Shown here one piece after another: positions 43,468 through 64,000 of a DNA stretch of 64,000 nucleotides. A model generated the notes under the pieces. The model did not search any database, was not told the DNA's origin, and saw only the letters and a program-made list of their open reading frames with translations. Each line of letters starts with the position of its first letter. Position 1 is the stretch's first letter. Made by a program: the position numbers and the translations under genes. The DNA comes from a virus: the IMG/VR virus record IMGVR_UViG_3300046787_000129, positions 45,630 to 109,629 of that record; one strand, 5' to 3'.

Positions 43468-43538
43468 TGCCCTATAGTTAAAAGGCATAACGAGCGGCTG
43501 TTAACCGCTGATTCTTGGTTCGAGTCCAGGTGGGGCAG
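43468..43538 (+). tRNA. tRNA-Asn(GTT)
   Basis: TGCCCTA/TGGGGCA acceptor; AGCGG-CTGTTAA-CCGCT; TTCGAGT T loop. Confidence 0.92.
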
Positions 43539-43560
43539 CTAATAACTAAATAGAGATCTT

Positions 43561-43634
43561 ATCAGAGTAGAGCAGTTAGGAAGCTCGCCAGGCTCATAAC
43601 CTGGAGGTCGTAGGTTCAAATCCTACCTCTGAAA
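43561..43634 (+). tRNA. tRNA-Met(CAT), initiator-like
   Basis: CCAGG-CTCATAA-CCTGG; 1:72 A/A mismatch; A11-U24; TTCAAAT T loop. Confidence 0.85.
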
Positions 43635-43645
43635 CTAATGGTTCC

Positions 43646-43682
43646 GCTTGCACCACTTCCAGGGTATGGGATAAAAGCAAGC
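43646..43682 (+). ncRNA. Compact pseudoknot-forming spacer element
   Basis: GCTTGC/GCAAGC, ACC/GGT, loop TTCCA pairing with TGGGA. Confidence 0.4.
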
Positions 43683-43685
43683 AAT

Positions 43686-43756
43686 GCGAATGTTGCATAG
43701 TGGTAGTGCCCCATCCTTCCAAGTTGGTGGTGCGAGTTCGATTCTCGCCATTCGCT
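43686..43756 (+). tRNA. tRNA-Gly(TCC)
   Basis: GCGAATG/CATTCGC acceptor; CTTCCAA loop; U73. Confidence 0.92.
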
Positions 43757-43916
43757 CTATAGGCTAATCACCTATACGCATGAGGAAGTTGTTAAATTTC
43801 TCGGTTCTAAGTGACTTTATACTTAGCGTGTAGGTAATCTCACGATATAGGTTCGGGGCTGGTCACCTGTCTTACGGAACGACTCAGGGATATAGATCTG
43901 ATTAATCTGATATCCC
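43757..43916 (+). ncRNA. Unassigned structured RNA
   Basis: ACCTATACGC/GCGTGTAGGT stem enclosing two hairpins; GGGATAT/ATATCCC hairpin; no credible ORF. Confidence 0.45.
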
Positions 43917-43920
43917 ACCT

Positions 43921-43987
43921 GGATAGATGGTGTAATGGCAACACAGCATTGATCAGCAAGTTGGGAGTTCGACTCTCCCTCTGTCCA
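43921..43987 (+). ncRNA. tRNA-like RNA with truncated anticodon arm
   Basis: GGATAGA/TCTGTCC acceptor, GTGT/ACAC D stem, GGGAG-TTCGACT-CTCCC T arm; only 18 nt between D and T arms. Confidence 0.75.
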
Positions 43988-43990
43988 CGA

Positions 43991-44083
43991 CTTATGTCTG
44001 CGGTTCGTAATTGTTCAGCACCTCGAAAGAGATTAAGCCATAAGCCATCAAGGCTCGCCAGAGCCCGTGTATGCGAATCTGGC
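43991..44083 (+). ncRNA. Unassigned structured RNA (three-way junction plus pseudoknot)
   Basis: CTTATG/CATAAG, CTC-GAAA-GAG, GGCTC/GAGCC with GCCAGA/TCTGGC. Confidence 0.4.
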
Positions 44084-44087
44084 ACTA

Positions 44088-44161
44088 GGCTTCATAGCTC
44101 AATTGGTTAGAGCACCGCCCTGTCACGGCGGAGGTTGACGGTTCAAGTCCGTTTGGAGTCG
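44088..44161 (+). tRNA. tRNA-Asp(GTC)
   Basis: GGCTTCA/TGGAGTC; CCGCC-CTGTCAC-GGCGG; G73. Confidence 0.93.
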
Positions 44162-44329
44162 CTCGAAGCATAGGTCTGAACAACTTATGTGTAGATCGTA
44201 TATCTGAAGATTACACTGTTCCAGCCGTGGAGTGAAGGCGTTCAGGCCCACAGACTTTGTGTTGAAGCGAGAACTAGGATATACAGCCAGTAGGAATGAA
44301 CCCTTAACCAAAAGGTGACCATGACTGGC
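44162..44329 (+). ncRNA. Unassigned structured RNA
   Basis: GCATAGGT/ACTTATGT hairpin whose loop CTGAAC pairs with GTTCAG; GCCAGT/ACTGGC stem. Confidence 0.45.
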
Positions 44330-44333
44330 AAAC

Positions 44334-44405
44334 GCCTCCTTAGCTCAGTGGTAGAGCAGCTCACTTGTAATGAGCAGGTCGTCAGTTCAATCCTGACAGG
44401 TGGCT
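44334..44405 (+). tRNA. tRNA-Thr(TGT)
   Basis: GCCTCCT/AGGTGGC; GCTCA-CTTGTAA-TGAGC. Confidence 0.92.
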
Positions 44406-44434
44406 CTGAAACAATTAAATAGAAGGAGGAAATC

Positions 44435-45310
44435 ATGGCCAAGGCACAATTTCCAATTGACGGCAAACTCGGAAAAGATTTTAAAGTCACCTCACTAATG
44501 GGTTATAGAATTCACCCAGTTAAAAAAGTAAAGAAGCACCACAACGGTACAGACATCTGGTCTCCACATGAGCCATGCTGGATCGAAGCTCCATATGACT
44601 GTGTAGTCTTGGAGGCAAAGAAGTCAACTGCACCTGGCGGTGGCTTTGGTAACTATGTAGTTATCCTAATGAAGATCAATGGCAAGTTCTATACTTCGCT
44701 ATTTGCACACATGCAGGATGGCTCTATCAAGGTTAAGAAGGGTCAGAAGATCCCTGCAGGAACTCCACTTGGTAAGATGGGCACTACTGGTATGTCTACT
44801 GGTAAGCACCTCCACTGGGAGCTTCGTCTTGGAAAGGTTCACACCTGGAACGACACTGGCAAGGACTACATTGAGCCTATTGGCTTCTTCAAGGCTCTGA
44901 TTGCTATGGAGGCTTCTATTGCCTCTGCTCCAGTCCTTGGAAACGATACCGTAGTTGCACCAGCACCTACCCACAATGCAGCAACAGCTGCAAAGGTAGA
45001 GGCTGAACGCAAGGGTATTGCTCCAGCAGCTAAGCCTGCTGCTAAGCCTGTGGTTAAGCCAGTTGCAAAACCAGCAGCTGTAGCAAAGCCAGTAGCTGTT
45101 GCCTCTGCAAAGCCTGCCCTAAAGGGAGAGCTTAAGCTAGGAACAAAGAATGGTCTTGTAACTTACCTACAGAAGTCTCTAAAGGTGACTGGAGATGTTG
45201 CTGGAACCTTTGGGCCAAATACAGCGAAGGCAGTGTCAGCACTACAGAAGGCTAATGGGCTGAAGGCTGATGGAGTTGTTGGTCCACTAACTTGGAGTAA
45301 GATTAAATAA
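44435..45310 (+). CDS. Endolysin: M23 peptidase plus peptidoglycan-binding domain
   Basis: HNGTD, GFGNYV, GTTGMSTGKHLHWE; AKP linker; FGPNTAKAV...DGVVGPLTW. Confidence 0.93.
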   Translation: MAKAQFPIDGKLGKDFKVTSLMGYRIHPVKKVKKHHNGTDIWSPHEPCWIEAPYDCVVLEAKKSTAPGGGFGNYVVILMKINGKFYTSLFAHMQDGSIKVKKGQKIPAGTPLGKMGTTGMSTGKHLHWELRLGKVHTWNDTGKDYIEPIGFFKALIAMEASIASAPVLGNDTVVAPAPTHNAATAAKVEAERKGIAPAAKPAAKPVVKPVAKPAAVAKPVAVASAKPALKGELKLGTKNGLVTYLQKSLKVTGDVAGTFGPNTAKAVSALQKANGLKADGVVGPLTWSKIK

Positions 45311-45487
45311 ATGGCAACATATGAATACCAGTGTGTAGAATGTGAAACTAAATTAGTAGTGAGCAGAAGCATATCAGAATCAGATCCTGGATATTTTTGT
45401 GAGACTTGCGGAAATAGAATGAATAGGGTATACTCAATGAGTAACCCTGTTTTCAAGGGTAGTGGATTCTATAGAACGGATAAGTAG
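45311..45487 (+). CDS. FmdB-family zinc-ribbon protein (58 aa, not in ORF track)
   Basis: MATYEYQCVEC...CETCG...FKGSGFYRTD. Confidence 0.88.
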   Translation: MATYEYQCVECETKLVVSRSISESDPGYFCETCGNRMNRVYSMSNPVFKGSGFYRTDK

Positions 45488-45720
45488 TGTCAGAGACAGT
45501 AGAGTGGGTACTTACTGCTAACGATCGTTGCGACAGTTGCGGAGCACAGGCGTACGTCCAGGTAACAGGAGTTACTGGAGACCTTGTGTTCTGCAACCAT
45601 CACTATAACAAGATTATGGACAGTACCACTGGGTACGAGAAGATGATGAATTTTGCTTATAATATTCTTGACGAGAGAGAAAGACTTGTTGAGAATAGAC
45701 TAGTAGGAAGTGACAGATAA
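45487..45720 (+). CDS. Actinobacterial-type small zinc-binding protein
   Basis: LTANDRCDSCGAQAYVQV...FCNHH. Confidence 0.7.
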   Translation: MSETVEWVLTANDRCDSCGAQAYVQVTGVTGDLVFCNHHYNKIMDSTTGYEKMMNFAYNILDERERLVENRLVGSDR

Positions 45721-46124
45721 TGTTTGAATATTTTGTCAAAGAAGTAACCAACGTAGTAGATGGAGATACCATTGACGTTGTAATCGATCTAGGATTCGAT
45801 ATTAGTTTTAGCTCACGTGTACGCCTAGCAGGCATTGATACTCCAGAGTCACGCACTACTGATAAGGTAGAGAAGGCCCTAGGCCTTGAGTCCAAGGAAT
45901 ATCTAAAAAAGACTATTAAGGCTGCAAAGACTGTTGTTATTAAGACTGAGAAGATGGACTCATCTGAGAAGTATGGTCGTATCCTTGGTTGGGTATATCT
46001 AGATGGTTCTGGTAACTCGATCAACAACGAAATGATTGAGAAGGGCTACGCCTGGGGGTACCTAGGAGACACCAAGGTTAAGGACTTTGAAGCACTTGCC
46101 AAAGCACGTGCACTCCACAAGTAG
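45720..46124 (+). CDS. Thermonuclease (SNase-like)
   Basis: VVDGDTID, RVRLAGIDTPE, KYGRILG. Confidence 0.92.
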   Translation: MFEYFVKEVTNVVDGDTIDVVIDLGFDISFSSRVRLAGIDTPESRTTDKVEKALGLESKEYLKKTIKAAKTVVIKTEKMDSSEKYGRILGWVYLDGSGNSINNEMIEKGYAWGYLGDTKVKDFEALAKARALHK

Positions 46125-46135
46125 TATAATTAATC

Positions 46136-46561
46136 ATGGAATATTTACTGGGATCACTTGTAACAGTAGCATTATTCTTTATCACTAGAAGAATCTTTAA
46201 TAGTACAGATAGCAAAGACCGTGACTTTAAGATAGTACATAGTCAGAGTTATGTGTATAGTCTAGTCAAACCACTCCTAAACCTTCAGTATATTGTAAGC
46301 AACAAGACCACTCAGGCATCTAAGTATTTAGATAGCCTATATGTCAGGGTAGTTATTGCAGAAAATAAAGCATACTGGATAACAGGAAATACATTCTTCG
46401 TAGCAGATGAAGAAGATGGTTTCGTTGACAAGGACACTGCAAAACCTGTAGACGTAATGTCTATGGATGATGTACAATTAAAGAAGATGATGTTTATTGT
46501 AGAAACACTCACGGAAGGAGCAGAAGATGAAGATCGCAATTCAGGGAACAAAAAGTTTTAA
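46136..46561 (+). CDS. Hypothetical membrane-anchored protein, leaderless
   Basis: N-terminal TM; TATAAT 5 nt before ATG. Confidence 0.6.
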   Translation: MEYLLGSLVTVALFFITRRIFNSTDSKDRDFKIVHSQSYVYSLVKPLLNLQYIVSNKTTQASKYLDSLYVRVVIAENKAYWITGNTFFVADEEDGFVDKDTAKPVDVMSMDDVQLKKMMFIVETLTEGAEDEDRNSGNKKF

Positions 46562-46877
46562 CGACTACACTATTTTTCTAAGAGCCATGGGCACAGCGAT
46601 GTCCTCTATGACTCCAGAAGATAGAGAGTTAACCATATTTTCTGCAGGACCAATGCAGATTAACTCATTCGGCATGGAGTTTTCTAACATATCTGAGCGT
46701 AGCCTAAAGGCTCGTGGTATCAGAATTAAGTTAGTTAAAGTTCCACCTAGCTGGATAAAGACAAACATTCACGATATAGATTACCTAGCATACTTCAGTA
46801 AGCCAAAGGAGCCACTGTCTGATCTAGTAGATTATGCAGAGGCCAAGGATATTGAAGTCGGAGTCTATAGATATTAA
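46527..46877 (+). CDS. SLOG/DUF2493-like protein
   Basis: MKIAIQGTKSFNDY resembles the GSRxFxDY SLOG start. Confidence 0.45.
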   Translation: MKIAIQGTKSFNDYTIFLRAMGTAMSSMTPEDRELTIFSAGPMQINSFGMEFSNISERSLKARGIRIKLVKVPPSWIKTNIHDIDYLAYFSKPKEPLSDLVDYAEAKDIEVGVYRY

Positions 46878-46928
46878 ACTTAGCAAATAAAGTGTTTGCT
46901 ATATTCAAATAACGAATCAAAAGGAGCT

Positions 46929-47141
46929 ATGATGTTAATCAAGTCTCTAGAACAAATGGAACAGATTGTAAAGAAGAATAAGTCTTTGATCTGGGATGGC
47001 TGGACAGTAGTAAGCCTACAGCCAACACACAATGGCGTCATGTCTAAGGACGGCGTAAAGATAAACGGTCGTTGGTATCTACAGAAGCGTTACGATGCCG
47101 ATACTAATGGATGGAATATACCAGACAATATAGTAGGCTAG
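46929..47141 (+). CDS. Hypothetical protein
   Basis: SD AAGGAG; WDGWTVV. Confidence 0.6.
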   Translation: MMLIKSLEQMEQIVKKNKSLIWDGWTVVSLQPTHNGVMSKDGVKINGRWYLQKRYDADTNGWNIPDNIVG

Positions 47142-47142
47142 T

Positions 47143-47430
47143 ATGGATAAACATGAGTGGAAAGAAAACGCAGCATGTTTAGACCTTGATAGAGACCTAT
47201 TCTTTGATAAGTATGAGGAAGACCTAGAGCTTAGGCCTAAGATAGATGCCCTGTGCTCTAACTGTCCAGTACTTAGACAGTGTTTCGCTGTTGGAATCTC
47301 CCAGAAGGAATGGGGAGTCTGGGGCGGAATCTATGTAGAGAACGGTAAGATCTCTAGAGAATTTAATAGACACAGGACAAAGCAAGATTGGGCTGAAACA
47401 TGGCAAAATCTTACAATGGATTCGGAGTAA
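47143..47430 (+). CDS. whiB: WhiB-family transcription regulator
   Basis: AAC...LFF...CSNCPVLRQC...GVWGG. Confidence 0.93.
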   Translation: MDKHEWKENAACLDLDRDLFFDKYEEDLELRPKIDALCSNCPVLRQCFAVGISQKEWGVWGGIYVENGKISREFNRHRTKQDWAETWQNLTMDSE

Positions 47431-47434
47431 CAGA

Positions 47435-48448
47435 ATGCAAACTACCCAGGTAAACTTAGGGCCAGTAGATACATATAAGTTCTTTGAAGATACTCAGCAA
47501 ATTAGATTGCCAGGTGCAGGCTCATACATAGAGCTTGCTGAATGGAATGCTGCAAACCGTACAACCATAGGTAGCGAAGATAAGGTTCTAAGCCTGATCT
47601 CTGATAACAAAAAACTGGTTGCTACGATGCATGTTTCATTTTATCACTTCTATCTAGATTTTGTTGGAAGAATCATTGAGCAGATAAACAAGCATCCAGA
47701 TACGGAAATCATTATTCATAGGCCACCTAGTGTAAATGAGCCTACTTCTGGAGCCTATGTCTTTGATTCATTCTTGCAGACGCTAGACTCGAAGGGCATC
47801 AAGTATTCTGTTTATAATCTAAGTGACTATAATGTACTAGAGATTAACAATGTATACTTGTTCTCTCACAGTAACGTCCCTAAAAATTATCCATCGGCCA
47901 TCTTTGACTTCTTCTCAGACTATGTTAGAAATCCTGGAATTACTCCGCATAGAGATATATTTCTATCTAGAAGACACATGGGGAACAGGCATTTCGGCAA
48001 TGCCCCAGAGTGGGCATGGGCTAACAATGATAACAGGATAGACAATCATGACAAGATAGAAGAGTACTTTAGTTCAATTGGGTATGAAGTAATCGTTCCA
48101 GAAACCTTAAATAGTTTTGAAGAGCAAATGAATACCTTTTACGAAGCAAGAACTATAGTGTCTACTACTAGCTCTGGACTTACAAACGCTGTATTTATGC
48201 AGCCAGGACAGACTATGATAGAGCTAGTAACACCACTGATGATCCACGTTCCAAAAGAGGGTGAGCCAGCCGAGAATGAGTTTGATCGCTGGACCATCCA
48301 GGAAGAGCTTCACCATTTTTATTCTGTAATAGCACTTCACAAGAAGCACAAGTTTCTAATGCTTGGAAACAAGTATAGAAGCTCTCAGGAAGTTATAGAG
48401 CAAATAGAAAGCGATGAATTCTTGAAACGCTTTATAGTCAGAAAGTAA
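47435..48448 (+). CDS. Glycosyltransferase family 61 (DUF563)-like
   Basis: FYHFYLD, IFLSR, PETLNSFEEQMNTFYEARTIV...SGLTNAVFMQPG..IEL. Confidence 0.8.
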   Translation: MQTTQVNLGPVDTYKFFEDTQQIRLPGAGSYIELAEWNAANRTTIGSEDKVLSLISDNKKLVATMHVSFYHFYLDFVGRIIEQINKHPDTEIIIHRPPSVNEPTSGAYVFDSFLQTLDSKGIKYSVYNLSDYNVLEINNVYLFSHSNVPKNYPSAIFDFFSDYVRNPGITPHRDIFLSRRHMGNRHFGNAPEWAWANNDNRIDNHDKIEEYFSSIGYEVIVPETLNSFEEQMNTFYEARTIVSTTSSGLTNAVFMQPGQTMIELVTPLMIHVPKEGEPAENEFDRWTIQEELHHFYSVIALHKKHKFLMLGNKYRSSQEVIEQIESDEFLKRFIVRK

Positions 48449-49077
48449 TGATGAATAAGTTAATTATTTTTGATCTAGATGGCGTACTCATAGATAGTAA
48501 AGAGATACATTTTAATGCACTAAACCTTGCACTAAAGGAATTTGGAAACGAGTTCATAATTAGCAGGGATGAGCAGAACAGCACGTTTGAAGGGTTGACA
48601 ACCAAGTCAAAGTTAAATATATTAACTAAGACTAAGAATCTTCCAGAAAGCCTGCATTATTATGTGTGGAAGCTAAAGCAGTCATATTCGTCTGCACTAT
48701 TTATGAGCGTATCTGTAGACCAGGAACTAATTAATTTATTTAAGTTTATAAGGTCAAGCGGTATAAAGATTGCAGTAGCAAGTAATAGCATTAGAGAAAC
48801 GCTAGACACTTGCCTGAAATCTCTAGGACTTCTTGACCTTATAGACTATTCATTAAGCAATGAAGATGTAGACTTGCCAAAACCTAGTCCAGAGATGTAT
48901 AATAAAGTTATAGAGCATTTCAATACAACACCAGACAAGGTTGTTATCTTTGAAGATAGTCCTATTGGTCTTATGGCAGCCCAGGCAAGTGGTGCCATGG
49001 TAGAGCCAGTGAGAAATAGATCGGACATATGGTTCGATAGAATACTTAGAGTAGTTGAGGAATTAAATGAAGCCTAA
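48448..49077 (+). CDS. HAD-family phosphatase
   Basis: FDLDGVLIDS, ASNS, KPSPE, FEDSPIG. Confidence 0.92.
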   Translation: MMNKLIIFDLDGVLIDSKEIHFNALNLALKEFGNEFIISRDEQNSTFEGLTTKSKLNILTKTKNLPESLHYYVWKLKQSYSSALFMSVSVDQELINLFKFIRSSGIKIAVASNSIRETLDTCLKSLGLLDLIDYSLSNEDVDLPKPSPEMYNKVIEHFNTTPDKVVIFEDSPIGLMAAQASGAMVEPVRNRSDIWFDRILRVVEELNEA

Positions 49078-49777
49078 CGTAGTGATACCAATGGCAGGTC
49101 TTGGGAGCAGGTTCGCTGAAAGTGGATATGCCCTACCAAAGCCATTGATAAAGATATTTGGCAAGCCAATGATTAAGTTGGTAGTCGATAGTCTGCAGCT
49201 AGATGCTAACTATATATTTATTGTTCAGAAGGAACACAGAGTAAAGTTTCATCTAGACGACGTTCTTGACGAGATTGCTCCAGGATGTAAGATTGTAGAA
49301 GTTGATGGAGTCACCGATGGTGCTGCAAGAACAGTTCTTCTTGCTAAAGATCTTATCGATAATGACACCCCACTCATAATATCAAATTCAGACCAGGTTG
49401 TAGTATGGTCGAGTTTTACTTTCGAGTCTGTACTGGCCTCACACAGCGTTGTAGCCCTATTCCGTGCAGACGATTCCAAGTGGTCATATGCTAAGATTGA
49501 TGAGCTTGGATTAATTTGCGAGGTAGCAGAGAAGAAAGTCATTAGCAACAATGCTAGTGTTGGTATTTATGGATGGAAGACTGGCTCTGACTATGTGAAG
49601 TATGCAGAGCAGATGATATCTAAGGATATCAGGACTAACAATGAGTTCTACATCGCTCCAGTCTACAATGAGGCAATCGCTGACGGAGAGAAAATCATTC
49701 CATACTTTGTAGATGAGATGCACGGACTTGGAACTCCAGAAGACATGAATAATTTTATTAAGGATAAAGTAAAGTGA
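49067..49777 (+). CDS. Sugar-phosphate nucleotidyltransferase-like protein
   Basis: IPMAGLGSRF...LPKPLI, NSDQ, EKKVIS, NNEFYIAPVYN, GTPED. Confidence 0.85.
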   Translation: MKPNVVIPMAGLGSRFAESGYALPKPLIKIFGKPMIKLVVDSLQLDANYIFIVQKEHRVKFHLDDVLDEIAPGCKIVEVDGVTDGAARTVLLAKDLIDNDTPLIISNSDQVVVWSSFTFESVLASHSVVALFRADDSKWSYAKIDELGLICEVAEKKVISNNASVGIYGWKTGSDYVKYAEQMISKDIRTNNEFYIAPVYNEAIADGEKIIPYFVDEMHGLGTPEDMNNFIKDKVK

Positions 49778-50211
49778 TTAAGATAGCACATAGGGGAAAC
49801 CAGAATGGCCCAGCACAGAATGAGAATGAGCCAACGCAGCTTGTAGCAACTCTTTCAGGCGGTTTTGATATTGAGGTAGATGTCTGGAAGGTTGAGGGAG
49901 AGTTCTTCCTAGGACACGATGCCCCACAGTATCCAGTAGACGAGCAGTTCTTGAGAGACATCGGAGACAGTGCCTGGTATCACTGTAAGAACCTCGATGC
50001 ACTGGAGCACTTCAACAAGCACCTGTCAGACCTGAGATATTTCTGGCACCAGGAAGATGCCTATACACTAACTAGCAATGGCTACATCTGGACTTATCCT
50101 GGACAACAGGTTACAGATAGATCTATCCTTGTTCATCTTGGTAAGCCAGATCTATCTACATTTGACGTTATGCCATACGCTATCTGTTCAGACTACGTAA
50201 GAGAGTTCTAG
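49774..50211 (+). CDS. Small GDPD/PLC-like phosphodiesterase
   Basis: IAHRGN, EN, EVDVW, LGHD, HCKN, ICSD. Confidence 0.75.
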   Translation: MIKIAHRGNQNGPAQNENEPTQLVATLSGGFDIEVDVWKVEGEFFLGHDAPQYPVDEQFLRDIGDSAWYHCKNLDALEHFNKHLSDLRYFWHQEDAYTLTSNGYIWTYPGQQVTDRSILVHLGKPDLSTFDVMPYAICSDYVREF

Positions 50212-50212
50212 C

Positions 50213-50449
50213 ATGTATACAGACGCAATGAAGAGAGCCTTTCACTCGGTAACACCACCAAAGAATTTTGCGGTACAGATAATTGACGAGGACAACTTCC
50301 TTACAGTTCGTGCTAGCGAAAGAATGTTCATGAAACTACTTGACGAAGACAAGCGTAGTGCGATAGAATATATGGTAAGAGTAAAAAAGGCACTGGAAGA
50401 TAATGGTGCAATCGTACTATTAACACGTGAAGGTGGAAAAGAAGATTAA
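50213..50449 (+). CDS. Hypothetical protein
   Basis: 78 aa ORF in operon. Confidence 0.6.
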   Translation: MYTDAMKRAFHSVTPPKNFAVQIIDEDNFLTVRASERMFMKLLDEDKRSAIEYMVRVKKALEDNGAIVLLTREGGKED

Positions 50450-56292: not shown

Positions 56293-56298
56293 AAAAGT

Positions 56299-56991: not shown

Positions 56992-57626
56992 TTTGGATTG
57001 ATCCAGATTTGATCCTGGATGCCTTCGCCCCACTGGTACTGAACATCACATAGCAAGAACCCAGAGTTAATCATAAAGTTAATAATGTGATTGTTTGTCT
57101 TGTGTTGGTGGTGGCGATAGAATGTCTCGGTTTCTAAATGAAATAGTTTTACATTCTTAATGTATTCCCCAAGGCCTTCCAAGAATTCGTGGGTATATCC
57201 TTCAATATCAACCTTAACAACATCAATGATCGTATCAGACAGACCGTTGTCCCTAATAAAGGTGTCCATTCTGGTTACAGGAACCTCTATGGTATTATAC
57301 TCAGCGTCCTTGAAGAACGAGTAGTTCTCTATTGAAGAAGATCCAGCATGATCCTTGTCCTCAGAAACTATCTGAATAAACTTAGTTGTTCCGTCATAGT
57401 TTGATATGGCTGTCTCAAAGACATTAAAGTTAGGATACTTAGCCTTTGCGTCTATGACAGCTAATGGGTTTGCATCAATGGCATAAACGTTTTCTGCAGA
57501 TAGGTGTTCACGTAAGAACTCTGCATCGTCACCATCTCTGGTACCAACATCAATAATAGTATTAGCAGTATCTCCAAAGTACTTCTTGTACTTCTCTACT
57601 ACTGGTTCCATCCATACATTTTCCAT
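56973..57626 (-). CDS. FkbM-family methyltransferase
   Basis: IIDVGTRDG, AIDANP, AISNYDG, TRMD, KVDIEG. Confidence 0.9.
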   Translation of the reverse strand: MENVWMEPVVEKYKKYFGDTANTIIDVGTRDGDDAEFLREHLSAENVYAIDANPLAVIDAKAKYPNFNVFETAISNYDGTTKFIQIVSEDKDHAGSSSIENYSFFKDAEYNTIEVPVTRMDTFIRDNGLSDTIIDVVKVDIEGYTHEFLEGLGEYIKNVKLFHLETETFYRHHQHKTNNHIINFMINSGFLLCDVQYQWGEGIQDQIWINPNYIVSY

Positions 57627-57639
57627 TTATTCTCCTTTG

Positions 57640-57713
57640 TCCCCCCAGTTGGAATCGAACCAACGACCTTAGAATTAGAAGTTCTCTGCTCTAGTCCCCT
57701 GAGCTATGGAGGG
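57640..57713 (-). tRNA. tRNA-Arg(TCT)
   Basis: CCCTCCA/TGGGGGG; loop CTTCTAA; TTCGATT. Confidence 0.9.
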
Positions 57714-57718
57714 TTGTG

Positions 57719-57804
57719 TCGGGCAAGTGGGGATCGAACCCACGATGTTTCTTATGTGTCAGATTTTAAGTCTGATGCGTTTCAACCAGCTTCGCCATTA
57801 CCCG
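57719..57804 (-). tRNA. tRNA-Leu(TAA)
   Basis: CGGGTAA/TTGCCCG; TCAGA-CTTAAAA-TCTGA; long variable region. Confidence 0.9.
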
Positions 57805-57826
57805 TTATCAATATTTAATTATATAG

Positions 57827-57903
57827 TCTTCCAGCTGGGGATCGAACCCAGATGTCACCAATTACTCTTTCTACACCTTATAAGAGTGAGGAGATACTGG
57901 AAG
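57827..57903 (-). ncRNA. Rearranged tRNA-like RNA with UAU anticodon-like loop
   Basis: CTTCCAG/CTGGAAG acceptor and CTGGG-TTCGATC-CCCAG T arm perfect; no D arm in normal position; CACT-CTTATAA-GGTG arm followed by AATTGGT. Confidence 0.75.
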
Positions 57904-57908
57904 TAAAG

Positions 57909-57982
57909 TAGGGTGTGTGGGATTTGAACCCACGACCGTCTCGTTATGAGCGAGTTGCGCTAACCAGCTGCGCCAACACCCC
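57909..57982 (-). tRNA. tRNA-CAT (elongator Met or lysidine Ile2)
   Basis: GGGGTGT/ACACCCT; CTCG-CTCATAA-CGAG. Confidence 0.88.
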
Positions 57983-57988
57983 ATACAT

Positions 57989-58687
57989 CTATAGACCAGC
58001 TATAAATGCATTTACTGTCTTAGGAAACGCTGTCTCCGTAAGACTCTGGACTGCCTTAGCATAGTCCTGGATCTCGACCTGGGCGTCATGGCCTAGGCGT
58101 TGCTCTAGAAATGTGATAGCACCCTGTAGCGAGGTAGTCCAACGCCAACGAACATACATACCATAGGCAGGTAGGAATAGACGTGCCAACTCTGGGGCAA
58201 CGTTATCTTCCATAGCCTCGTGGTAAAGCTTTACGCCATCAATGATAGACTCACGAAGCTTGTTAGTATAGTGAGCACCATTACTAAAATGAATAGGCTC
58301 TCCGCTGCCCTGTTTGCTATTCTCTGGCTTACTACGCCAAGCAGATGCGCTAGGGATATAGAACTCTTCGTCCTCCGTGATATAGCGACGTGATGACTCA
58401 TTCCAGCCATTCTGATCATCTACATGTGTAGAACCTACAGCATACTTCCACCACTGACGTGCTACGAAGAGTGGTGCATAGACCTCAAACGTGAGCGCAG
58501 CGTGACGAAATGGTGACGTGTGACCCTCACGGATGAGGAAGTCAATGAGTTTTGCATCTCTGGCGGTAAACTCAGTAGACTCCTTATCGTACGATACACG
58601 TGCAGCATTGACAATAGATAGGTCAGTGCCAAGAGTGTCAACAAGACGTACATATCCCTTATCCAATACATTAATCTTCGATTCCAT
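57989..58687 (-). CDS. thyX: Flavin-dependent thymidylate synthase
   Basis: IVNAARVSY, HTSPF, ARQW, NESSRRY, ELARLFLP, HDAQVEI. Confidence 0.95.
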   Translation of the reverse strand: MESKINVLDKGYVRLVDTLGTDLSIVNAARVSYDKESTEFTARDAKLIDFLIREGHTSPFRHAALTFEVYAPLFVARQWWKYAVGSTHVDDQNGWNESSRRYITEDEEFYIPSASAWRSKPENSKQGSGEPIHFSNGAHYTNKLRESIIDGVKLYHEAMEDNVAPELARLFLPAYGMYVRWRWTTSLQGAITFLEQRLGHDAQVEIQDYAKAVQSLTETAFPKTVNAFIAGL

Positions 58688-58830
58688 ATGTTTCCTTAAT
58701 AGTTTTAATAGCGGTAGAGTTTACTTCTGCATCTAGGCCAAGTAATTCTACAATATCTTTTGCCCTATCCCTTGCGGCATAACGCTTAAAGTCTTCTAAC
58801 AGTGCACGAGACATTGTTAGTTGTTCTGAA

Positions 58831-59133
58831 TCATGACTTACTGACAAGGTCTTTTACCTCTGGGTATTCAAGATACTCTTGAACATCATCAATATTAGCT
58901 TTCATATCTCTGCCGATCTGAGCCCATAGGTCAAGCATTTGATTCCAAACACCTTCTGGTACAAATGTGGTCCATGCATCATTCATAAAGATCATTGGCT
59001 GGCCTTCAGTTGGCTTAAGGGTATATCCCCACTTAGCACCATCCTCATCTTCATAGGTGCGGAATAGTAATCCCTGTGGGTCTGGTCGTAGACCAATGCC
59101 ACGTAGCTGTCCTGGCTGTGGTTGTCCTGTCAT
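58831..59133 (-). CDS. Hypothetical protein
   Basis: 100 aa, coupled start. Confidence 0.55.
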   Translation of the reverse strand: MTGQPQPGQLRGIGLRPDPQGLLFRTYEDEDGAKWGYTLKPTEGQPMIFMNDAWTTFVPEGVWNQMLDLWAQIGRDMKANIDDVQEYLEYPEVKDLVSKS

Positions 59134-59285
59134 TAGTATTCCTTTTCTGCATGGGTAACACCATGCTTATCATCAATGTACTTATGAATCTTTCTTAATG
59201 CCTTAGCCTTAGAGATTCCAAGACCTACTACTAAAAAGATTCCATTCCAAAAGAATTCTGCAATGATATGGTCAAGACCAAACAT
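59133..59285 (-). CDS. Small membrane protein (start uncertain)
   Basis: One TM followed by KIHKYIDDKHG. Confidence 0.5.
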   Translation of the reverse strand: MFGLDHIIAEFFWNGIFLVVGLGISKAKALRKIHKYIDDKHGVTHAEKEY

Positions 59286-59304
59286 TACTTCAAGAATTTC
59301 TTCA

Positions 59305-59733
59305 CTACTGGACAATTGCAACCACACTTTCAATACATTCGTTTACGATTCGGTGCCATGTAATGGCAGGTAGCCATGCAACATTAGAAGTAATGCCACG
59401 GCCTGAGTGCTTGTACCAAGAGATTTCAATACCAGTTTTCTTGTGTACAAAGTTTGGAGGGCAGTCTGGATCATGCCCAATGCGATTTCCATCACACCAG
59501 CAGTAACTGCACATAGCAAATACGCTATTGTCATAACCCTCTTCACCATCATTGGCTGTTAGTAAAGGTCCGTTACTATGCTTGCCCGATGGATAACCAC
59601 GATGCTCTCGGATTATCTCCGCTATGGCGTCTAGCCCAGCAGTAGCCCAGTCAGCCTCATGCTCATATGTAGGACCATTAGTCAGTACAATCTGACCAAT
59701 CTCAGTGTATGCTGGTCCGTGTTTTGATAGCAT
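59305..59733 (-). CDS. Hypothetical protein
   Basis: SD GGGAG; YCWC...CPPNF...ISWYKH. Confidence 0.6.
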   Translation of the reverse strand: MLSKHGPAYTEIGQIVLTNGPTYEHEADWATAGLDAIAEIIREHRGYPSGKHSNGPLLTANDGEEGYDNSVFAMCSYCWCDGNRIGHDPDCPPNFVHKKTGIEISWYKHSGRGITSNVAWLPAITWHRIVNECIESVVAIVQ

Positions 59734-59852
59734 CAATAGTCTCCCTAATCTTTGCTTTCAATTTTGGTTTAGTAAAGTAGTTCCAGCTATTTAGGAACCA
59801 GTGTTTGTAGATATGCAAGGGATACTTAATCATCCCTTCACGCTTCTTGTGC

Positions 59853-60143
59853 TTAGCCAATTACGGCAAAGATATCACGATATGGAAGAATGACAAGGTC
59901 CTTGCCATCATGCTTAATCTCAGTGCCAGAGTACTTGGAATAGATAACCTTGTCGCCTACTGCAACATCCATACTCATCTTAGTGCCATCTGCAAAGGTT
60001 GCTCCTGCACCAACTGCAATAACAATGCCCTCGGTTGGCTTCTCTTCTGCTGAACCTGCAATGATAAGGCCTGATGAAGTTACCTTCTCAGTCTCAACAA
60101 TAGGCTCGATAACAATCTTATCTTCTAGTGGCTTCAAACTCAT
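59853..60143 (-). CDS. groES: Co-chaperonin GroES
   Basis: LKPLEDKIVI, SGLII, EKPTEG.VIAVG, VGDKVIYSKYSGTEI. Confidence 0.95.
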   Translation of the reverse strand: MSLKPLEDKIVIEPIVETEKVTSSGLIIAGSAEEKPTEGIVIAVGAGATFADGTKMSMDVAVGDKVIYSKYSGTEIKHDGKDLVILPYRDIFAVIG

Positions 60144-60352
60144 TTGTGCTCCTTAATTAACTGAATCGCTCTTTCGATTCCATCTGAATAATCAATGTTA
60201 CCATTGCGCAACTCTTTTTGCAATACCTTTACGAAAACTTTTTTAGCTTCTGTTAGAGCAGCGTCTGCTCCAACCTCGTAGCCACTATTCCAACCATCGT
60301 TAAATAGAGCTTCGATCTTTTGTTCACGTCTCTTCTTTATCCTGTTTATCAT
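60140..60352 (-). CDS. Hypothetical protein
   Basis: ATG 60352 after AAGGAGAG; longer ORF-track start overlaps tRNA-Gln. Confidence 0.55.
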   Translation of the reverse strand: MINRIKKRREQKIEALFNDGWNSGYEVGADAALTEAKKVFVKVLQKELRNGNIDYSDGIERAIQLIKEHK

Positions 60353-60364
60353 TATCTCTCCTTG

Positions 60365-60436
60365 CTCTCCCCCAAGGACTCGAACCTCGATAGCCAGGAC
60401 CAAAACCTGGAGTCTTGCCAATTAGACGAAGGGAGA
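60365..60436 (-). tRNA. tRNA-Gln(TTG)
   Basis: TCTCCCT/GGGGAGA; CCAGG-TTTTGGT-CCTGG. Confidence 0.92.
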
Positions 60437-60464
60437 ATGCGGCAAAGCAGATCATTACTTTACC

Positions 60465-60556
60465 TAGTTACAGTGGGATTCGAACCCACGCCTCCCCTAG
60501 TCATCTGCTGCATACAGTTTATAGACTATGGCGTACTGCCCCTATACTATGTAACT
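60465..60556 (-). ncRNA. tRNA-like RNA with expanded anticodon domain
   Basis: AGTTACA/TGTAACT acceptor, GTAT/GTAC D stem, GTGGG-TTCGAAT-CCCAC T arm; 43 nt between D and T arms without a canonical 7-nt loop. Confidence 0.72.
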
Positions 60557-60558
60557 TG

Positions 60559-60635
60559 TGGCATGTCAGGGAATCGAACCCTTCTAACCTATGGTACAGG
60601 ATTTACAGTCCCGTGTCTGTCCCAGCAGCCATGCC
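60559..60635 (-). tRNA. tRNA-Tyr(GTA), non-canonical core
   Basis: CGGGA-CTGTAAA-TCCTG; ACC-ATA-GGT variable arm; short D arm; mismatches at acceptor/T junction. Confidence 0.7.
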
Positions 60636-60746
60636 TTGTGCACCTTAGCCTAACCCAGATAGGTGCCACATCTGTAATAGTTTTTACTAGTATTACTATT
60701 AAGGAGTCATAATGCTTTCGCAACATAGGACTATTCCTGGTGTTCG

Positions 60747-60817
60747 CACCACCTCAAGGAGTCGAACCTTGGCTCTCAGTTTTGGAGACTGATGTGCTAC
60801 CGTAACACTTAGGTGAT
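60747..60817 (-). tRNA. tRNA-Trp(CCA)
   Basis: ATCACCT/AGGTGGT; TCAGT-CTCCAAA-ACTGA; G73. Confidence 0.92.
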
Positions 60818-60822
60818 ATGTG

Positions 60823-60894
60823 TGACCCCACGGAGAATTGAACTCCGATTGCCAGGTTGAAAACCTGGAGTCCTAACCATTAAACGATGGGGCC
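60823..60894 (-). tRNA. tRNA-Glu(TTC)
   Basis: GGCCCCA/TGGGGTC; CCAGG-TTTTCAA-CCTGG. Confidence 0.92.
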
Positions 60895-60900
60895 GAAAGA

Positions 60901-61038
60901 CTATTTTAGCAGAGACTTTAGCTTTTCGCAATAGCAATTTGAAGATTCATTTAGATCCATAAGGTCTTTGTAGATATACCAGGGTATTTGATACCAGGCA
61001 CCGCAAGGGCAATTATAATACATAGGTTGTTTTGCCAT
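60901..61038 (-). CDS. Small Cys-rich protein (45 aa, leaderless, not in ORF track)
   Basis: TATAAT 5 nt before ATG; CPCG...CYC. Confidence 0.55.
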   Translation of the reverse strand: MAKQPMYYNCPCGAWYQIPWYIYKDLMDLNESSNCYCEKLKSLLK

Positions 61039-61071
61039 ACTCAATTATACTACTTATGATAGAATTGTTAT

Positions 61072-61293
61072 ATGAATAATTGTCCAAACTGTAATCACGA
61101 CCTCGTGAACATAATTTATGGTATGCCCTCACAGAAGGCTATCGATCTTGCAAGACAAGAAGACATTGCTTTAGGGGGTTGCCTCTATGAGCCAGACCTT
61201 CCTACCCACTACTGCTATGGATGCCATGAGGCATATCCAACCATAGAGGACAAGGGTAACTATGAAGAAGTTTTGCCACTCTTCGCTGAGTGA
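61072..61293 (+). CDS. Zinc-ribbon protein, leaderless
   Basis: CPNC...IIYGMP...LGGC...CYGC; TAGAAT 6 nt before ATG. Confidence 0.7.
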   Translation: MNNCPNCNHDLVNIIYGMPSQKAIDLARQEDIALGGCLYEPDLPTHYCYGCHEAYPTIEDKGNYEEVLPLFAE

Positions 61294-61384
61294 CATTCGC
61301 ATTCACATACAACATCAAAGCTTAGTAGCTTGCCTATGCATTCAGAATGATAATTCTTGCCAATGCACCAACCAAAGATAGCCA

Positions 61385-61642
61385 TTAGAACGGTGGCTCT
61401 TCATTCTCACCCAGGAACATATCGTTAAAGTCACTAATCTCATATCGCTTTGGCGTAATGATTTCAATGGCCCACTCTGAGCAGGCTGAATCAGCTTCCT
61501 TAAGCAACTGAATATTCTTTAAATTATTTACATCAGCACCAATGAGCTTTGCTACCTCTATATAGATGCCAAACTCTGGGAATATCTTCCAGGCAAGCTG
61601 TTCACGAAAGTTTTCGGTAACATTCTTAATCCAATTGATCAT
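61385..61642 (-). CDS. Hypothetical protein
   Basis: 85 aa ending EEPPF; SD AAGGAG. Confidence 0.5.
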   Translation of the reverse strand: MINWIKNVTENFREQLAWKIFPEFGIYIEVAKLIGADVNNLKNIQLLKEADSACSEWAIEIITPKRYEISDFNDMFLGENEEPPF

Positions 61643-61793
61643 CTTCTAACTCCTTTAAGTCTCTCTCAAGATTGGCACTACGTCTAAAGTAAGCCACAAT
61701 CTCTTCTCCACTAACCTTATATGTAAAATTGTCATATGTCAAGGTATATATTCTGTCTGGAAAAATCGGGTAGTTAAACTTATCGCTGCTCAT
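61626..61793 (-). CDS. Hypothetical protein (55 aa, leaderless)
   Basis: TACACT 6 nt before ATG; overlaps next gene. Confidence 0.5.
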   Translation of the reverse strand: MSSDKFNYPIFPDRIYTLTYDNFTYKVSGEEIVAYFRRSANLERDLKELEDDQLD

Positions 61794-61814
61794 AGAAATA
61801 GTGTACCAGAAGTA

Positions 61815-61843
61815 TTGACATAGTCATAACAATACTCTATACT
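61815..61843 (+). promoter_or_regulatory. SigA-type promoter of the operon leading to rtcB
   Basis: TTGACA-17 nt-TATACT. Confidence 0.8.
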
Positions 61844-61868
61844 AAATGTACAAACAAAAGGAGAAATC

Positions 61869-62093
61869 ATGGATTTCAGCAACATGGCAAACATGAAGCT
61901 GTCTGACTTTGAGAACATCGGTCAGACCAAGTATAACGAAGGCTTCAAGGCTGCACTACAAACAGTAACTAAACTACTACAGGGTCGCATCTGTGAAGAC
62001 TATAATGCAGATGGCTCATGCGAGCATGACCTATGTTCACAGAACCAGCAGTTGGTTGAAGGCCTTGATGGGGCCATTCGTAATCTCGGGTAA
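61869..62093 (+). CDS. Hypothetical protein
   Basis: SD AGGAG; 74 aa. Confidence 0.6.
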   Translation: MDFSNMANMKLSDFENIGQTKYNEGFKAALQTVTKLLQGRICEDYNADGSCEHDLCSQNQQLVEGLDGAIRNLG

Positions 62094-62101
62094 GGAATAA
62101 G

Positions 62102-62248
62102 ATGAGTAAGAAATCACTATACGAACTACAGTATGAGAACGCCAAGATTGAGAACGATGTAAACACTGGGTGTGCAATCATTGGCTTGGTGGGTTTTGGA
62201 ATCATTGCATTATTCATAATTGTTGCATTCTCTCTAGCGTTAGGCTAA
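62102..62248 (+). CDS. Small membrane protein (48 aa)
   Basis: SD AAGGA; C-terminal TM. Confidence 0.5.
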   Translation: MSKKSLYELQYENAKIENDVNTGCAIIGLVGFGIIALFIIVAFSLALG

Positions 62249-62250
62249 TT

Positions 62251-62505
62251 ATGGCACAGCTACTCAAGGCAAACAAGCCTACGAGTCTTACCTGTATGCA
62301 CAACCTAGACTACGAGATGGACTGGGATGGCGATGAGTATCTATATAAAGTAGATCTGGATAAGCGTTACATTGACCACCTCGAACGATCGGGGTATCGT
62401 ATGCACAGGCTGGTACCAGAAATCCTAGTATGGAATAAGTCACTAGACTTCCAAACTATATATATTGCACGTGCAGAAGACTTTGATGAAGTGGAGATGT
62501 TTTAA
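62251..62505 (+). CDS. Hypothetical protein
   Basis: ATG 62251; coupled to next gene. Confidence 0.5.
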   Translation: MAQLLKANKPTSLTCMHNLDYEMDWDGDEYLYKVDLDKRYIDHLERSGYRMHRLVPEILVWNKSLDFQTIYIARAEDFDEVEMF

Positions 62506-62990
62506 TGACTGTATTCTTAATTAGCGATACTCACTTTGGCCACGCTAATATTGTTAAGTATGCAGAGCGTCCATTCGATACCGTTGAAGAAATGAACGAG
62601 GTAATGGTTGATAACTGGAATAGTGTTGTTAAGCAAGGTGACAAGGTATATCACCTTGGAGATGTCACTATGAACTCTAAGTCATTAGATATCCTATCAC
62701 GACTAAATGGTCGTAAGGTATTGATCAAAGGCAACCACGATATTCAGAAGCTAAAGTTTTATACTCCACACTTCTACGATATTCGTGGTAGTCACGAACT
62801 AGATAACTTTATCTTAACTCACATTCCTGTTAGCGATACCCAGAAGTTGCGGTATAGGGGAAACATTCACGGACACACTCACGAGAAGAACCTACAAGAT
62901 CCTTGGTACTTTAACGTAAGTGTAGAACAAATCAATTACACACCAACAGCATTTGATGAAATAATTAAGGATATACGATGGAACAAATAA
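62505..62990 (+). CDS. Calcineurin-like metallophosphoesterase
   Basis: SDTHFGH, HLGD, GNHD, THIP, HGHTH. Confidence 0.92.
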   Translation: MTVFLISDTHFGHANIVKYAERPFDTVEEMNEVMVDNWNSVVKQGDKVYHLGDVTMNSKSLDILSRLNGRKVLIKGNHDIQKLKFYTPHFYDIRGSHELDNFILTHIPVSDTQKLRYRGNIHGHTHEKNLQDPWYFNVSVEQINYTPTAFDEIIKDIRWNK

Positions 62991-64000
62991 CCAATAAACT
63001 ATTTAACTGGGCATCTATTCTAGATGAGAAAACACTTGAGCAGGCTAAGACTACTTCGTCAATGCCGTTCATTTTCCCACACCTAGCACTGATGCCAGAT
63101 GCACACCTTGGTAAGGGGTCTACTGTTGGGTCAGTAATTCCTACACAGGGAGCCATTATGCCTGCTGCAATTGGGGTAGACATTGGCTGTGGAATGATGG
63201 CTATTAAGACTAACAAGAATGTACACGACATAGAGGGTGTAAACCTTAAGGAATTGCGTGAGTCAATTGAGTCTGCTATTCCACTATCAGCTTTTAAGCA
63301 TAATCAGACAGTTAAGCCAGATGCACTTGATGCAGCAGAGGAACTGCTTGACGCTGCCCTAGACGCTGGGTTTAATCCATCAGACTATGCGAGTAACTGG
63401 ACGCACCAGCTTGGATCTCTTGGTTCTGGCAATCACTTTATTGAGATTACAGTGGATGAGGAAAACTCTATCTGGCTATTCTTGCACTCAGGCTCTCGTG
63501 GAATTGGTAACAAGATTGCTACACATCACATTGCTGTTGCACAGGAATATGCAAAGAAGAACTTCATTACCCTGGTAGATCCAGACCTAGCGTACCTTGT
63601 AGAAGGCACTGTAGAGTTCGATCGCTACATCGCTGAGATGACTTGGGCACAAAAGTTTGCTTTTAAGAATCGTGAAGTAATGATGAGTCGTGTCAAGAAG
63701 GCATTTAAGCATCACGTTGGTGATTTCGAAATCATTGAAGAGATTAACTGTCACCACAACTTTACTCAGCCTGAGAATCATTGGGGCAAGAATCTGTGGA
63801 TAACTCGTAAGGGTGCTATCTCTGCTAATGAAGGACAGATGGGTCTTATTCCAGGTTCAATGGGTACTGCATCGTATGTAGTTGAAGGACTTGGTAATAA
63901 GCTTTCGTTCTGCACTGCACCACATGGTGCTGGGCGTGAATACTCTCGTAATGAAGCACGAAAGGTCTTTACAAAAGAGTCCTTAGATGATATGATGAGA
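62978..64000 (+). CDS. rtcB: RtcB RNA ligase (3' truncated by window, absent from ORF track)
   Basis: Translated by hand: MEQITNKL...LMPDAHLGKG...GVDIGCGM...LGSLGSGNHFIE...HSGSRGIG...CHHN...RKGA...IPGSMG...APHGAGR. Confidence 0.96.
   Translation, partial: MEQITNKLFNWASILDEKTLEQAKTTSSMPFIFPHLALMPDAHLGKGSTVGSVIPTQGAIMPAAIGVDIGCGMMAIKTNKNVHDIEGVNLKELRESIESAIPLSAFKHNQTVKPDALDAAEELLDAALDAGFNPSDYASNWTHQLGSLGSGNHFIEITVDEENSIWLFLHSGSRGIGNKIATHHIAVAQEYAKKNFITLVDPDLAYLVEGTVEFDRYIAEMTWAQKFAFKNREVMMSRVKKAFKHHVGDFEIIEEINCHHNFTQPENHWGKNLWITRKGAISANEGQMGLIPGSMGTASYVVEGLGNKLSFCTAPHGAGREYSRNEARKVFTKESLDDMMR

Follow-up and report, generated by a model that had tools for sequence, protein, structure and literature searches.

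The 64,000-nucleotide (nt) stretch of phage DNA analyzed here, called the window throughout, spans bases 45630-109629 of the 109,629-bp IMG/VR virus record IMGVR_UViG_3300046787_000129. It contains three clusters of tRNA genes, a metallophosphoesterase gene that runs into a gene for the RNA ligase RtcB, and three genes for unusual tRNA-shaped RNAs, which we denote m1, m2 and m3. Judged by their sequences, m1, m2 and m3 are real, selected RNAs of three unrelated families. With moderate confidence, we interpret this part of the genome as a mosaic accessory region in which three tRNA operons are accompanied by an RNA-repair cassette that is optional and separate from them, m2 is a rewired tRNA-Ile(UAU), m1 and m3 are non-decoding RNAs, and no integrated system unites these components.

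The anticodon arm of a canonical cloverleaf, a 5-bp stem with a 7-nt loop flanked by the D arm and the variable loop, is found in none of the three RNAs, and the words with which the original prediction had characterized them (truncated, transposed and expanded) describe m1, m2 and m3 fairly. What all three families keep, with covariation, is the 7-bp acceptor stem, the 5-bp T stem with its G53-C61 pair, the UUCRA T-loop and the U8/A14/R15-Y48 set. The acceptor, T arm and tertiary core are thus maintained via compensatory changes in each of the RNAs, which bears out the earlier claim that the alterations were selected and not random.

The m2 gene (57827-57903, minus strand, 77 nt) is located in the second tRNA cluster. 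Neither ARAGORN nor the Rfam tRNA model (RF00005) called it in the window. ARAGORN overlooked m2 everywhere, and the copy in the related genome G002 scored 28.5 bits against the Rfam model, just under its 29-bit gathering threshold. In the window copy, the 7-bp acceptor stem is perfect and the T arm is canonical. An exact-core pattern scan of IMG/VR gathered a family of 27 viral contigs (26 from IMG/VR and the window) with 21 distinct sequences, in which the stems are 99.7% paired and 13 of the 19 pairs carry compensatory changes. None of 500 shuffles reached the observed level of pairing, a slid control also stayed far below it, and RNAalifold independently yielded the same fold. The m2 core is absent from 185,579 prokaryote species genomes.

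Read from its 5' end, m2 consists of a 7-bp acceptor stem, a connector of 3 nt (UAU), an anticodon helix of 9 bp that contains bulges, a second connector of 12-13 nt, a normal T arm and the discriminator base A73. The 9-bp helix is composed of the former D-stem strands and the anticodon stem; the anticodon stem-loop itself is correct but nested inside the D-stem strands. Its loop, CUUAUAA, is invariant in the 21 distinct sequences, as is A73, and the UAU anticodon, A37 and A38 are those of an AUA decoder. Invariance extends over a 24-nt anticodon-arm block, and the remainder of the molecule varies. The second connector reads A-R-Y-N-G-G-U...A, which is a D-loop sequence (A14, R15, G18G19). Its second base and the base immediately 5' of the T stem vary in concert in 20 of the 21 sequences (13 A-U and seven G-C; the remaining one is A-C), as an R15-Y48 Levitt pair predicts. 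U8, A14 and G53-C61 are invariant as well. Despite the changed strand order, m2 thus seems to preserve the tertiary core of an L-shaped tRNA, and the molecule probably keeps the L-shaped elbow. Structurally, both strands of the D stem would clasp the anticodon arm to form one continuous 9-bp helix, and the D-loop sequence would be relocated ahead of the T arm, where the U8-A14, R15-Y48 and G18G19-T-loop contacts could still be made.

The canonical tRNA-Ile(UAU) genes of related phages (Rfam RF00005; carried by L001-L004, L051 and others) share with m2 the stem-loop UCACU CUUAUAA GGUG-, A73 and the T arm, and they occupy the same genomic slot, after tRNA-Met and before tRNA-Leu/Arg. m2, however, lacks a D stem-loop: its D-stem strands flank the anticodon arm on both sides, and the D-loop sequence follows on the 3' side of that arm. 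The anticodon arms of m2 and of the canonical phage genes are identical. Hence, the designation of m2 as an anticodon-variant mimic in the original prediction does not hold: its arm is precisely that of the canonical tRNA-Ile(UAU), whose gene it replaces allele for allele.

The replacement is evident from the distribution of the two genes. Out of 80 ThyX-centred loci that we fetched, 75 had a known Ile(UAU)/m2 state: 12 carried m2, 29 carried the canonical gene, and none carried both (P = 0.0015 under independence, uncorrected for phylogeny). The canonical gene was likewise missing from all 23 further m2 loci, two of which contained an Ile(GAU) gene. In the closest relatives of the window (L001-L004, a clade with 99% support), the cluster order is Met-Ile(UAU)-Leu(UAA)-Arg(UCU); the place of the Ile gene is taken by m2 in the window. 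m2 is scattered across the ThyX tree, and the window alone bears it within a clade (99% support) whose other members have the canonical gene. This scatter and the single-slot swap show that m2 and the canonical gene behave as exchangeable alleles. No other Ile(UAU) gene is present in the complete genomes G002 and G000 (the latter is the whole record, that is, the window and the preceding 45.6 kb), and AUA accounts for 21% of the Ile codons of this phage.

Two observations concern the wider occurrence of these genes. The canonical tRNA-Ile(UAU) of L001 (5534-5608) and its alleles in L002-L004 and L007 have a U1-U72 mismatch atop the acceptor stem (UCUGCGA...UCGCAGU). An m2-type gene, adjacent to genes for Ile(GAU) and Phe tRNAs, also belongs to the tRNA array of contig L214 (IMGVR_UViG_3300042868_007803; 43 kb, estimated to be 13% complete), which appears to derive from a much larger, unrelated phage; the m2 design is therefore not confined to this phage group.

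Because m2 is found in the canonical slot and never together with the canonical gene, we read it as an AUA decoder rather than a decoy: it is probably a working, rewired tRNA-Ile(UAU) that lacks the normal D arm. Given the observed fold, covariation and allelic replacement, the transcript would be processed, charged by the host isoleucyl-tRNA synthetase (IleRS) and used to decode AUA. Aminoacylation by IleRS and use by the ribosome are inferred, with indirect support from the mutual exclusivity and the positional replacement. A similar layout of acceptor stem, short connector, extended anticodon stem and T arm exists in the mitochondrial D-arm-less tRNA-Ser(AGY) and in the engineered 'mini HisT' (PMC7609411, PMC11551756). 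The latter shows that bacterial translation can use a D-arm-less fold (PMC7609411, PMC11551756), and a D-arm-less tRNA is accepted by E. coli EF-Tu and ribosomes (PMC11551756). m2 differs from the mitochondrial type III tRNAs and mini HisT by its 12-13-nt D-loop-like second connector with the covarying 15-48 pair, and from tRNA-Ser(AGY) and mini HisT also in being natural, phage-encoded and meant for the bacterial cytoplasm.

The second RNA, m1 (43921-43987, plus strand, 67 nt), scored 44.2 bits with the Rfam tRNA model and thus passes its 29-bit gathering threshold. The acceptor stem, D arm, T arm and A15-U48 pair are canonical, and the anticodon arm of the window copy is cut to 12 nt, with UGAUCA in its loop. 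Pattern and covariance-model searches located m1 in about 18 contigs, among which 15 sequences are distinct. Its position is constant, with tRNA-Gly(UCC) on one side and tRNA-Asp(GUC) on the other, with the sole exception of a paralogue-like copy (L062:3537-3604) in cluster 3 of another phage. Across the 15 homologues, the acceptor, D and T stems are 100% paired, 10 of the 16 pairs show compensation, and A15-U48 is invariant. The anticodon arm is invariably 11-12 nt long and composed of GC, a loop of 7-8 nt and GC, which amounts to a 2-bp stem. Most alleles have the loop (R)YUGAUCA, similar to an anticodon loop (U33, GAU, C37, A38) placed on a 2-bp stub; one allele, present in four contigs including G002, has AAGGAACG instead. 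This arm would end about 3 bp short of the decoding center, from which we predict that m1 cannot decode. Its core is absent from the same 185,579 prokaryote species genomes, and m1, like m2, is therefore a phage invention and not a copied host RNA.

A derivation of m1 from tRNA-Ile(GAU) was considered and rejected, as its body is unlike the Ile(GAU) genes of the relatives and position 37 is a C. A special meaning of the GATC/UGAUCA sequence was similarly dismissed: genome-wide, the observed to expected ratios are 0.71 for GATC and 0.86 for TGATCA, both unremarkable. A leader consisting of GGGAUAU...AUAUCCC followed by ACCU recurs across many of the m1 contigs, where leaders and trailers come in three alternative types.

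The third RNA, m3 (60465-60556, minus strand, 92 nt), passes the Rfam gathering threshold with 46.1 bits and was reported by ARAGORN as 'tRNA-???' with a 2-nt anticodon. Its acceptor stem, D arm and T arm are canonical, with an acceptor/T arrangement of 7/5. The anticodon domain has been expanded into a stem of 5-8 layers built around UAGUC/GACUA, followed by an internal loop that is asymmetric (UAUAAA(A) / AU) and a hairpin of 4 bp as the cap, and the window copy has no 7-nt anticodon loop. The minimum-energy fold is the same in the window copy and in the divergent L001 copy; the alternative proposed by ARAGORN, a 5-bp stem with a 6-nt loop, is a poorer fit to L001. Between these two copies the 15-48 pair changes from G15-C48 (window) to A15-U48 (L001). 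Only six contigs carry m3, and pattern scans of IMG/VR and metagenomes for further copies returned known contigs and chance coding matches only. In all six, m3 is accompanied by a 9-bp spacer hairpin directly on its 3' side (60441-60464, minus strand, in the window), which RNAfold predicts in the window and L001 copies with a change from U.G to U-A. Four m3 copies are 92-100% identical to that of the window, whereas the neighboring Gln and Trp tRNAs are just 60-71% identical. On these sequences m3 is real and conserved, with a structure that rests on few of them, and its anticodon arm is predicted to be too long and too branched to decode. Two identities were tried and abandoned for m3. By eye, its internal loops of 6-7 and 2 nt, instead of 3 and 3, do not form the bulge-helix-bulge of an archaeal-type intron that RtcB might splice. 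It is not an allo-tRNA or tRNA-Sec-like molecule either, as those have a 12-bp acceptor domain (8/4 or 9/3) and a long variable arm (PMC7609411), and m3 is 7/5.

Both m1 and m3 have retained the features that are read by RNase P, RNase Z, the CCA enzyme and T-loop modifiers, and have discarded the part read by the ribosome. They would be cut out by RNase P and RNase Z, receive CCA as tRNAs do, and then act as non-decoding mimics of the tRNA body. Two roles appear about equally likely: m1 and m3 could be structural, processing or stabilizing units of the tRNA operon, or they could serve a tRNA-body-binding factor as its ligands or decoys. A function as decoys for anticodon nucleases is less likely, since it is precisely the anticodon stem-loop that was removed or remodelled.

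Among known RNAs, the YrlA and other bacterial Y RNAs mimic tRNA and are often encoded next to rsr and rtcB, including in some phages (PMC4201824). m1 and m3 are similar to them in being non-decoding and in having tRNA-like D, T and acceptor modules. However, they are not permuted, being open at the acceptor ends and closed on the anticodon side, and there is no Ro-binding stem. The phage genome contains no TROVE/Ro gene, and neither RNA has an Rfam YrlA match at E<1. Like the tRNA-like domain of transfer-messenger RNA (tmRNA), m1 and m3 combine an acceptor/T module with the lack of a decoding anticodon arm, but they have no G3-U70 pair, no mRNA-like part and no tag, and they keep a full D arm; ARAGORN finds no tmRNA.

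Several points weigh against the interpretation given above. The D arm is normally a contact site for IleRS (U12-A23 in E. coli), and m2 has no normal D arm. Either of the two tRNAs with a CAU anticodon could be a lysidine-type tRNA-Ile2, which would make m2 dispensable for reading AUA. Furthermore, 34 of the 75 loci have neither m2 nor the canonical Ile(UAU) gene, which makes the function optional. The invariance of the m2 anticodon arm in the 27-contig set is partly forced by the exact-match search pattern; a covariance-model search of 90 loci also produced no variants of this arm. As for the other two RNAs, m3 is represented by only two truly distinct sequences, too few for statistics, and the roles proposed for m1 and m3 are guesses.

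The alternative that survives best, though we consider it unlikely, is that m2 is a regulatory or decoy RNA, which displays the anticodon arm of tRNA-Ile(UAU) on a body that is not a tRNA and binds, for example, a nuclease, a modification enzyme or IleRS. The confinement of strict invariance to the 24-nt arm block would fit such a display, and so would the fact that a bacterial tRNA with an arm missing is not known to work in translation (PMC11551756). But a decoy is expected beside the real tRNA, and m2 substitutes for the canonical gene in the same slot next to tRNA-Arg(UCU) and is never found alongside it. Moreover, A73, G53-C61, the T-loop and the 15-48 covariation would be needless for the mere display of an arm, and all of them are kept.

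A bolder version of the rewired tRNA-Ile(UAU), which we regard as quite unlikely, assigns all three RNAs to counter-defense. m2 would be the first natural non-cloverleaf tRNA in bacterial translation, rewired so that AUA decoding is kept when defenses attack L-shaped tRNAs, and m1 and m3 would be tRNA-body decoys with a disabled anticodon that are harmless to translation and titrate effectors acting on the acceptor/elbow half. Toxins that modify the tRNA 3' end and are common in actinobacteria are candidate effectors.

We judge as very unlikely the proposal with which this analysis began, that the tRNA set, m1, m2, m3 and the phosphoesterase-RtcB pair form one layered anti-defense system of replacement, nuclease soaking and resealing. 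The genes themselves are arranged as had been described: the calcineurin-type metallophosphoesterase gene (62505-62990, plus strand, 161 amino acids; Pfam Metallophos_2 at 37 bits, phrog_547 at 175 bits) starts 1.6 kb from cluster 3 and overlaps rtcB (62978-64000, plus strand; Pfam RtcB at 345 bits for the part in the window) by 13 nt. The rtcB gene is cut by the end of the window and record and continues at the record start (G000:43-1140), where a full-length PF01139 match of 387 bits covers model positions 1-426. A search of the PDB with the phosphoesterase returned a hypothetical protein as the only match. All parts of the proposed system lie within a 20-kb span of this genome, and there are precedents for it. 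Phages counter tRNA-targeting defenses with T4 Pnk/Rnl against PrrC, with T5 tRNAs against PARIS, and with anticodon-loop escape variants (PMC10802454, PMC10264068). Mycobacteriophage LilPharaoh has a Pnk-RtcB gene pair, in which a healing enzyme adjoins RtcB. The phage studied here likewise combines a tRNA set with an RNA ligase, but its ligase is RtcB with a calcineurin-type phosphoesterase, is rare among the relatives and is unlinked to the odd RNAs.

The distribution of the components across related genomes speaks against a single system. RtcB is present in only three of 47 related records (G000, G002 and G020) and in two of the seven complete ones. G000 (100% complete) contains m1, m2, m3, RtcB and the phosphoesterase; G002 (99%) has m1, m2 and RtcB, but neither m3 nor the phosphoesterase; and the fragment G020 has m1, RtcB and the canonical Ile gene, but neither m2 nor m3. 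Conversely, the RtcB-free genomes include G008 (100%), with m3 and the canonical Ile gene and without m1 and m2; G052 (95%) and G054 (with terminal repeats), both with m1 and without m2; and G057 (85%), with m2. Five others (G001, G005, G006, G007 and G010; 88-100% complete) are devoid of all three RNAs and of RtcB. The three RNAs are also distributed independently of one another. All three RtcB-positive records do contain m1, and a perfect co-occurrence of m1 and RtcB (3/3 versus 0/9) was apparent at one point, but it vanished once more m1 genomes were examined. Nine further contigs (L128-L136) encode an RtcB that is 88-98% identical; m2 and m3 were not found in their flanks. The phosphoesterase accompanies RtcB in three of ten contigs (the window, L129 and L131) and is absent from the other seven (L128, L130 and L132-L136), so the adjacency of healing enzyme and ligase that characterizes a two-enzyme heal-and-seal cassette is not conserved.

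Since complete or nearly complete genomes that lack RtcB can contain each of the odd RNAs, and m2 or m3 can be missing where RtcB is present, these components are inherited independently. The original prediction had named this outcome, independence of rtcB for each RNA across the relatives, as refuting it, and the layered replacement-decoy-repair system is not supported on these grounds. In addition, m1 and m3 lack the normal anticodon stem-loop, which is the target of anticodon nucleases, and the anticodon loop of m2 is unchanged in a molecule that behaves as an allele of a real tRNA. By its distribution, rtcB is an RNA-repair gene of sporadic occurrence that was acquired independently, whether or not the phosphoesterase gene accompanies it. 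By analogy with LilPharaoh, the phosphoesterase-RtcB pair may form a small repair cassette of its own.

Finally, that m1, m2 and m3 are functionless tRNA pseudogenes decaying in the course of cluster turnover is extremely improbable: the highly mosaic nature of the tRNA clusters, the rarity of m3 with its varying loop length and the existence of an L085-type m1 allele without the UGAUCA loop could be cited in its favor, but for m1 and m2 it is contradicted by covariation, with stem cells paired at 100% and 99.7%, respectively, and many compensatory changes, arm lengths are conserved, m3 is better conserved than the bona fide tRNAs that flank it, and G002 retains both m1 and m2 despite having only about six tRNAs.

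In the literature, we found no paper on a natural D-arm-rewired tRNA in phages or bacteria, nor on an anticodon-stub mimic of the m1 type, and neither PMC7609411 nor PMC11551756 lists one. Should m2 prove to be charged and to decode AUA, the statement that the known tRNAs of bacterial systems are all cloverleafs (PMC11551756) would no longer hold, and m2, if functional, would offer a natural template for the design of orthogonal tRNAs. As m2 was overlooked by ARAGORN and by Rfam's own threshold, tRNA repertoires of phages are undercounted. With m1 there is a well-defined new family of tRNA mimics that lack an anticodon and differ from both Y RNAs and tmRNA. A word of caution also follows, namely that the proximity of tRNA-like genes to rtcB in a single genome is not evidence of a functional module.

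The standard tRNAs of the window number 12 in three clusters, as had been predicted. ARAGORN identified 11 of them, in addition to the 'tRNA-???' at m3, and a weak tRNA-Tyr(GUA) emerged at a relaxed threshold. Cluster 1, on the plus strand, comprises tRNA-Asn(GUU) (43468-43539), tRNA-Met(CAU) (43561-43635) and tRNA-Gly(UCC) (43686-43757), which score 56-62 bits with the Rfam tRNA model, followed by tRNA-Asp(GUC) (44088-44162) and tRNA-Thr(UGU) (44334-44406) at 66-67 bits. The other two clusters are on the minus strand, and apart from the Tyr gene their members were found by both ARAGORN and Rfam. Cluster 2 consists of tRNA-Arg(UCU) (57639-57713), tRNA-Leu(UAA) (57718-57804) and a tRNA-Met(CAU) (57908-57982) that is ambiguous between the initiator, elongator and Ile2 types. 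Cluster 3 consists of tRNA-Gln(UUG) (60364-60436), tRNA-Tyr(GUA) (60558-60635), tRNA-Trp(CCA) (60746-60817) and tRNA-Glu(UUC) (60822-60894). The codons read by the 12 tRNAs are mostly A-ending and heavily used by the phage (AGA, GGA, ACA, GAA, CAA). These tRNAs would constitute an ordinary supplementary set that serves codon compensation and possibly replaces host tRNAs lost to defense.

The tRNA-Tyr(GUA) is a slightly irregular type-II molecule: G7 and A66 are mismatched, as are an A and a G at the base of the T stem, the D stem has only 3 bp, and the variable region of 14 nt is unpaired. The Rfam tRNA-Sec model matches it at 28.5 bits, which is below threshold, and the gene is kept in L002, L004 and L020. 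In G002 (contig L020), five canonical tRNAs (Asn, Asp, Thr, Glu and Gln) are accompanied by the Tyr-like gene, m1 and m2, so that the odd genes survive in a minimal set. The tRNA-Leu(UAA) genes of L002 (4894-4967), L004 (6856-6929) and L032 (4629-4703) are only 73-75 nt long and miss the long variable arm that bacterial tRNA-Leu normally has. Judging by these sequences, the short tRNA-Leu(UAA) is another non-canonical tRNA design of this phage group. Cluster 3 of a relative (L045:4572-4645) contains a 74-nt tRNA with the anticodon UCA, labelled 'SeC' by ARAGORN, which may be an opal suppressor.

The spacers of cluster 1 (window 43635-44333) are long, 50-170 nt, and contain conserved hairpins. 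In promoter and terminator scans the frequency of matches was no higher than expected by chance; among these matches, a plausible promoter at 60931-60903 (minus strand) precedes cluster 3. In a related phage, a match to the Rfam manA RNA (L097:1-178) of 55.1 bits, 0.1 bit under the gathering score, is located directly upstream of a 20-tRNA array. The accessory genes between the tRNA clusters of the window encode an M23 peptidase, glycosyltransferases, a HAD hydrolase, Hsp20, a ferritin-like protein, GroES, ThyX and an FkbM methyltransferase.

We take the source to be a lytic phage with a genome of about 110 kb whose hosts are freshwater actinobacteria of a lake. An actinobacterial host is supported by a gene for a WhiB-like protein (47143-47430) and is consistent with mycobacteriophage proteins being the nearest relatives of the phage RtcB. 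A megablast search against GenBank phages found no close cultured relative. The record is labelled 'linear' in IMG/VR. Its first and last 1002 bp are 96.5% identical, and the genome is therefore circularly permuted or terminally redundant. As the repeat (window 62999-64000 and G000:1-1002) is not exact, two slightly different rtcB alleles have been assembled end to end, which points to population variants of a circularly permuted genome. Also of note is the extreme avoidance of certain palindromes in the complete record: CCGG occurs 0 times versus about 78 expected, CGCG once versus 55, and GCGC 11 times versus 100, whereas the counts of GATC, CTAG and TGCA are close to expectation. Such avoidance of GC-rich palindromes suggests escape from restriction or modification-dependent systems.

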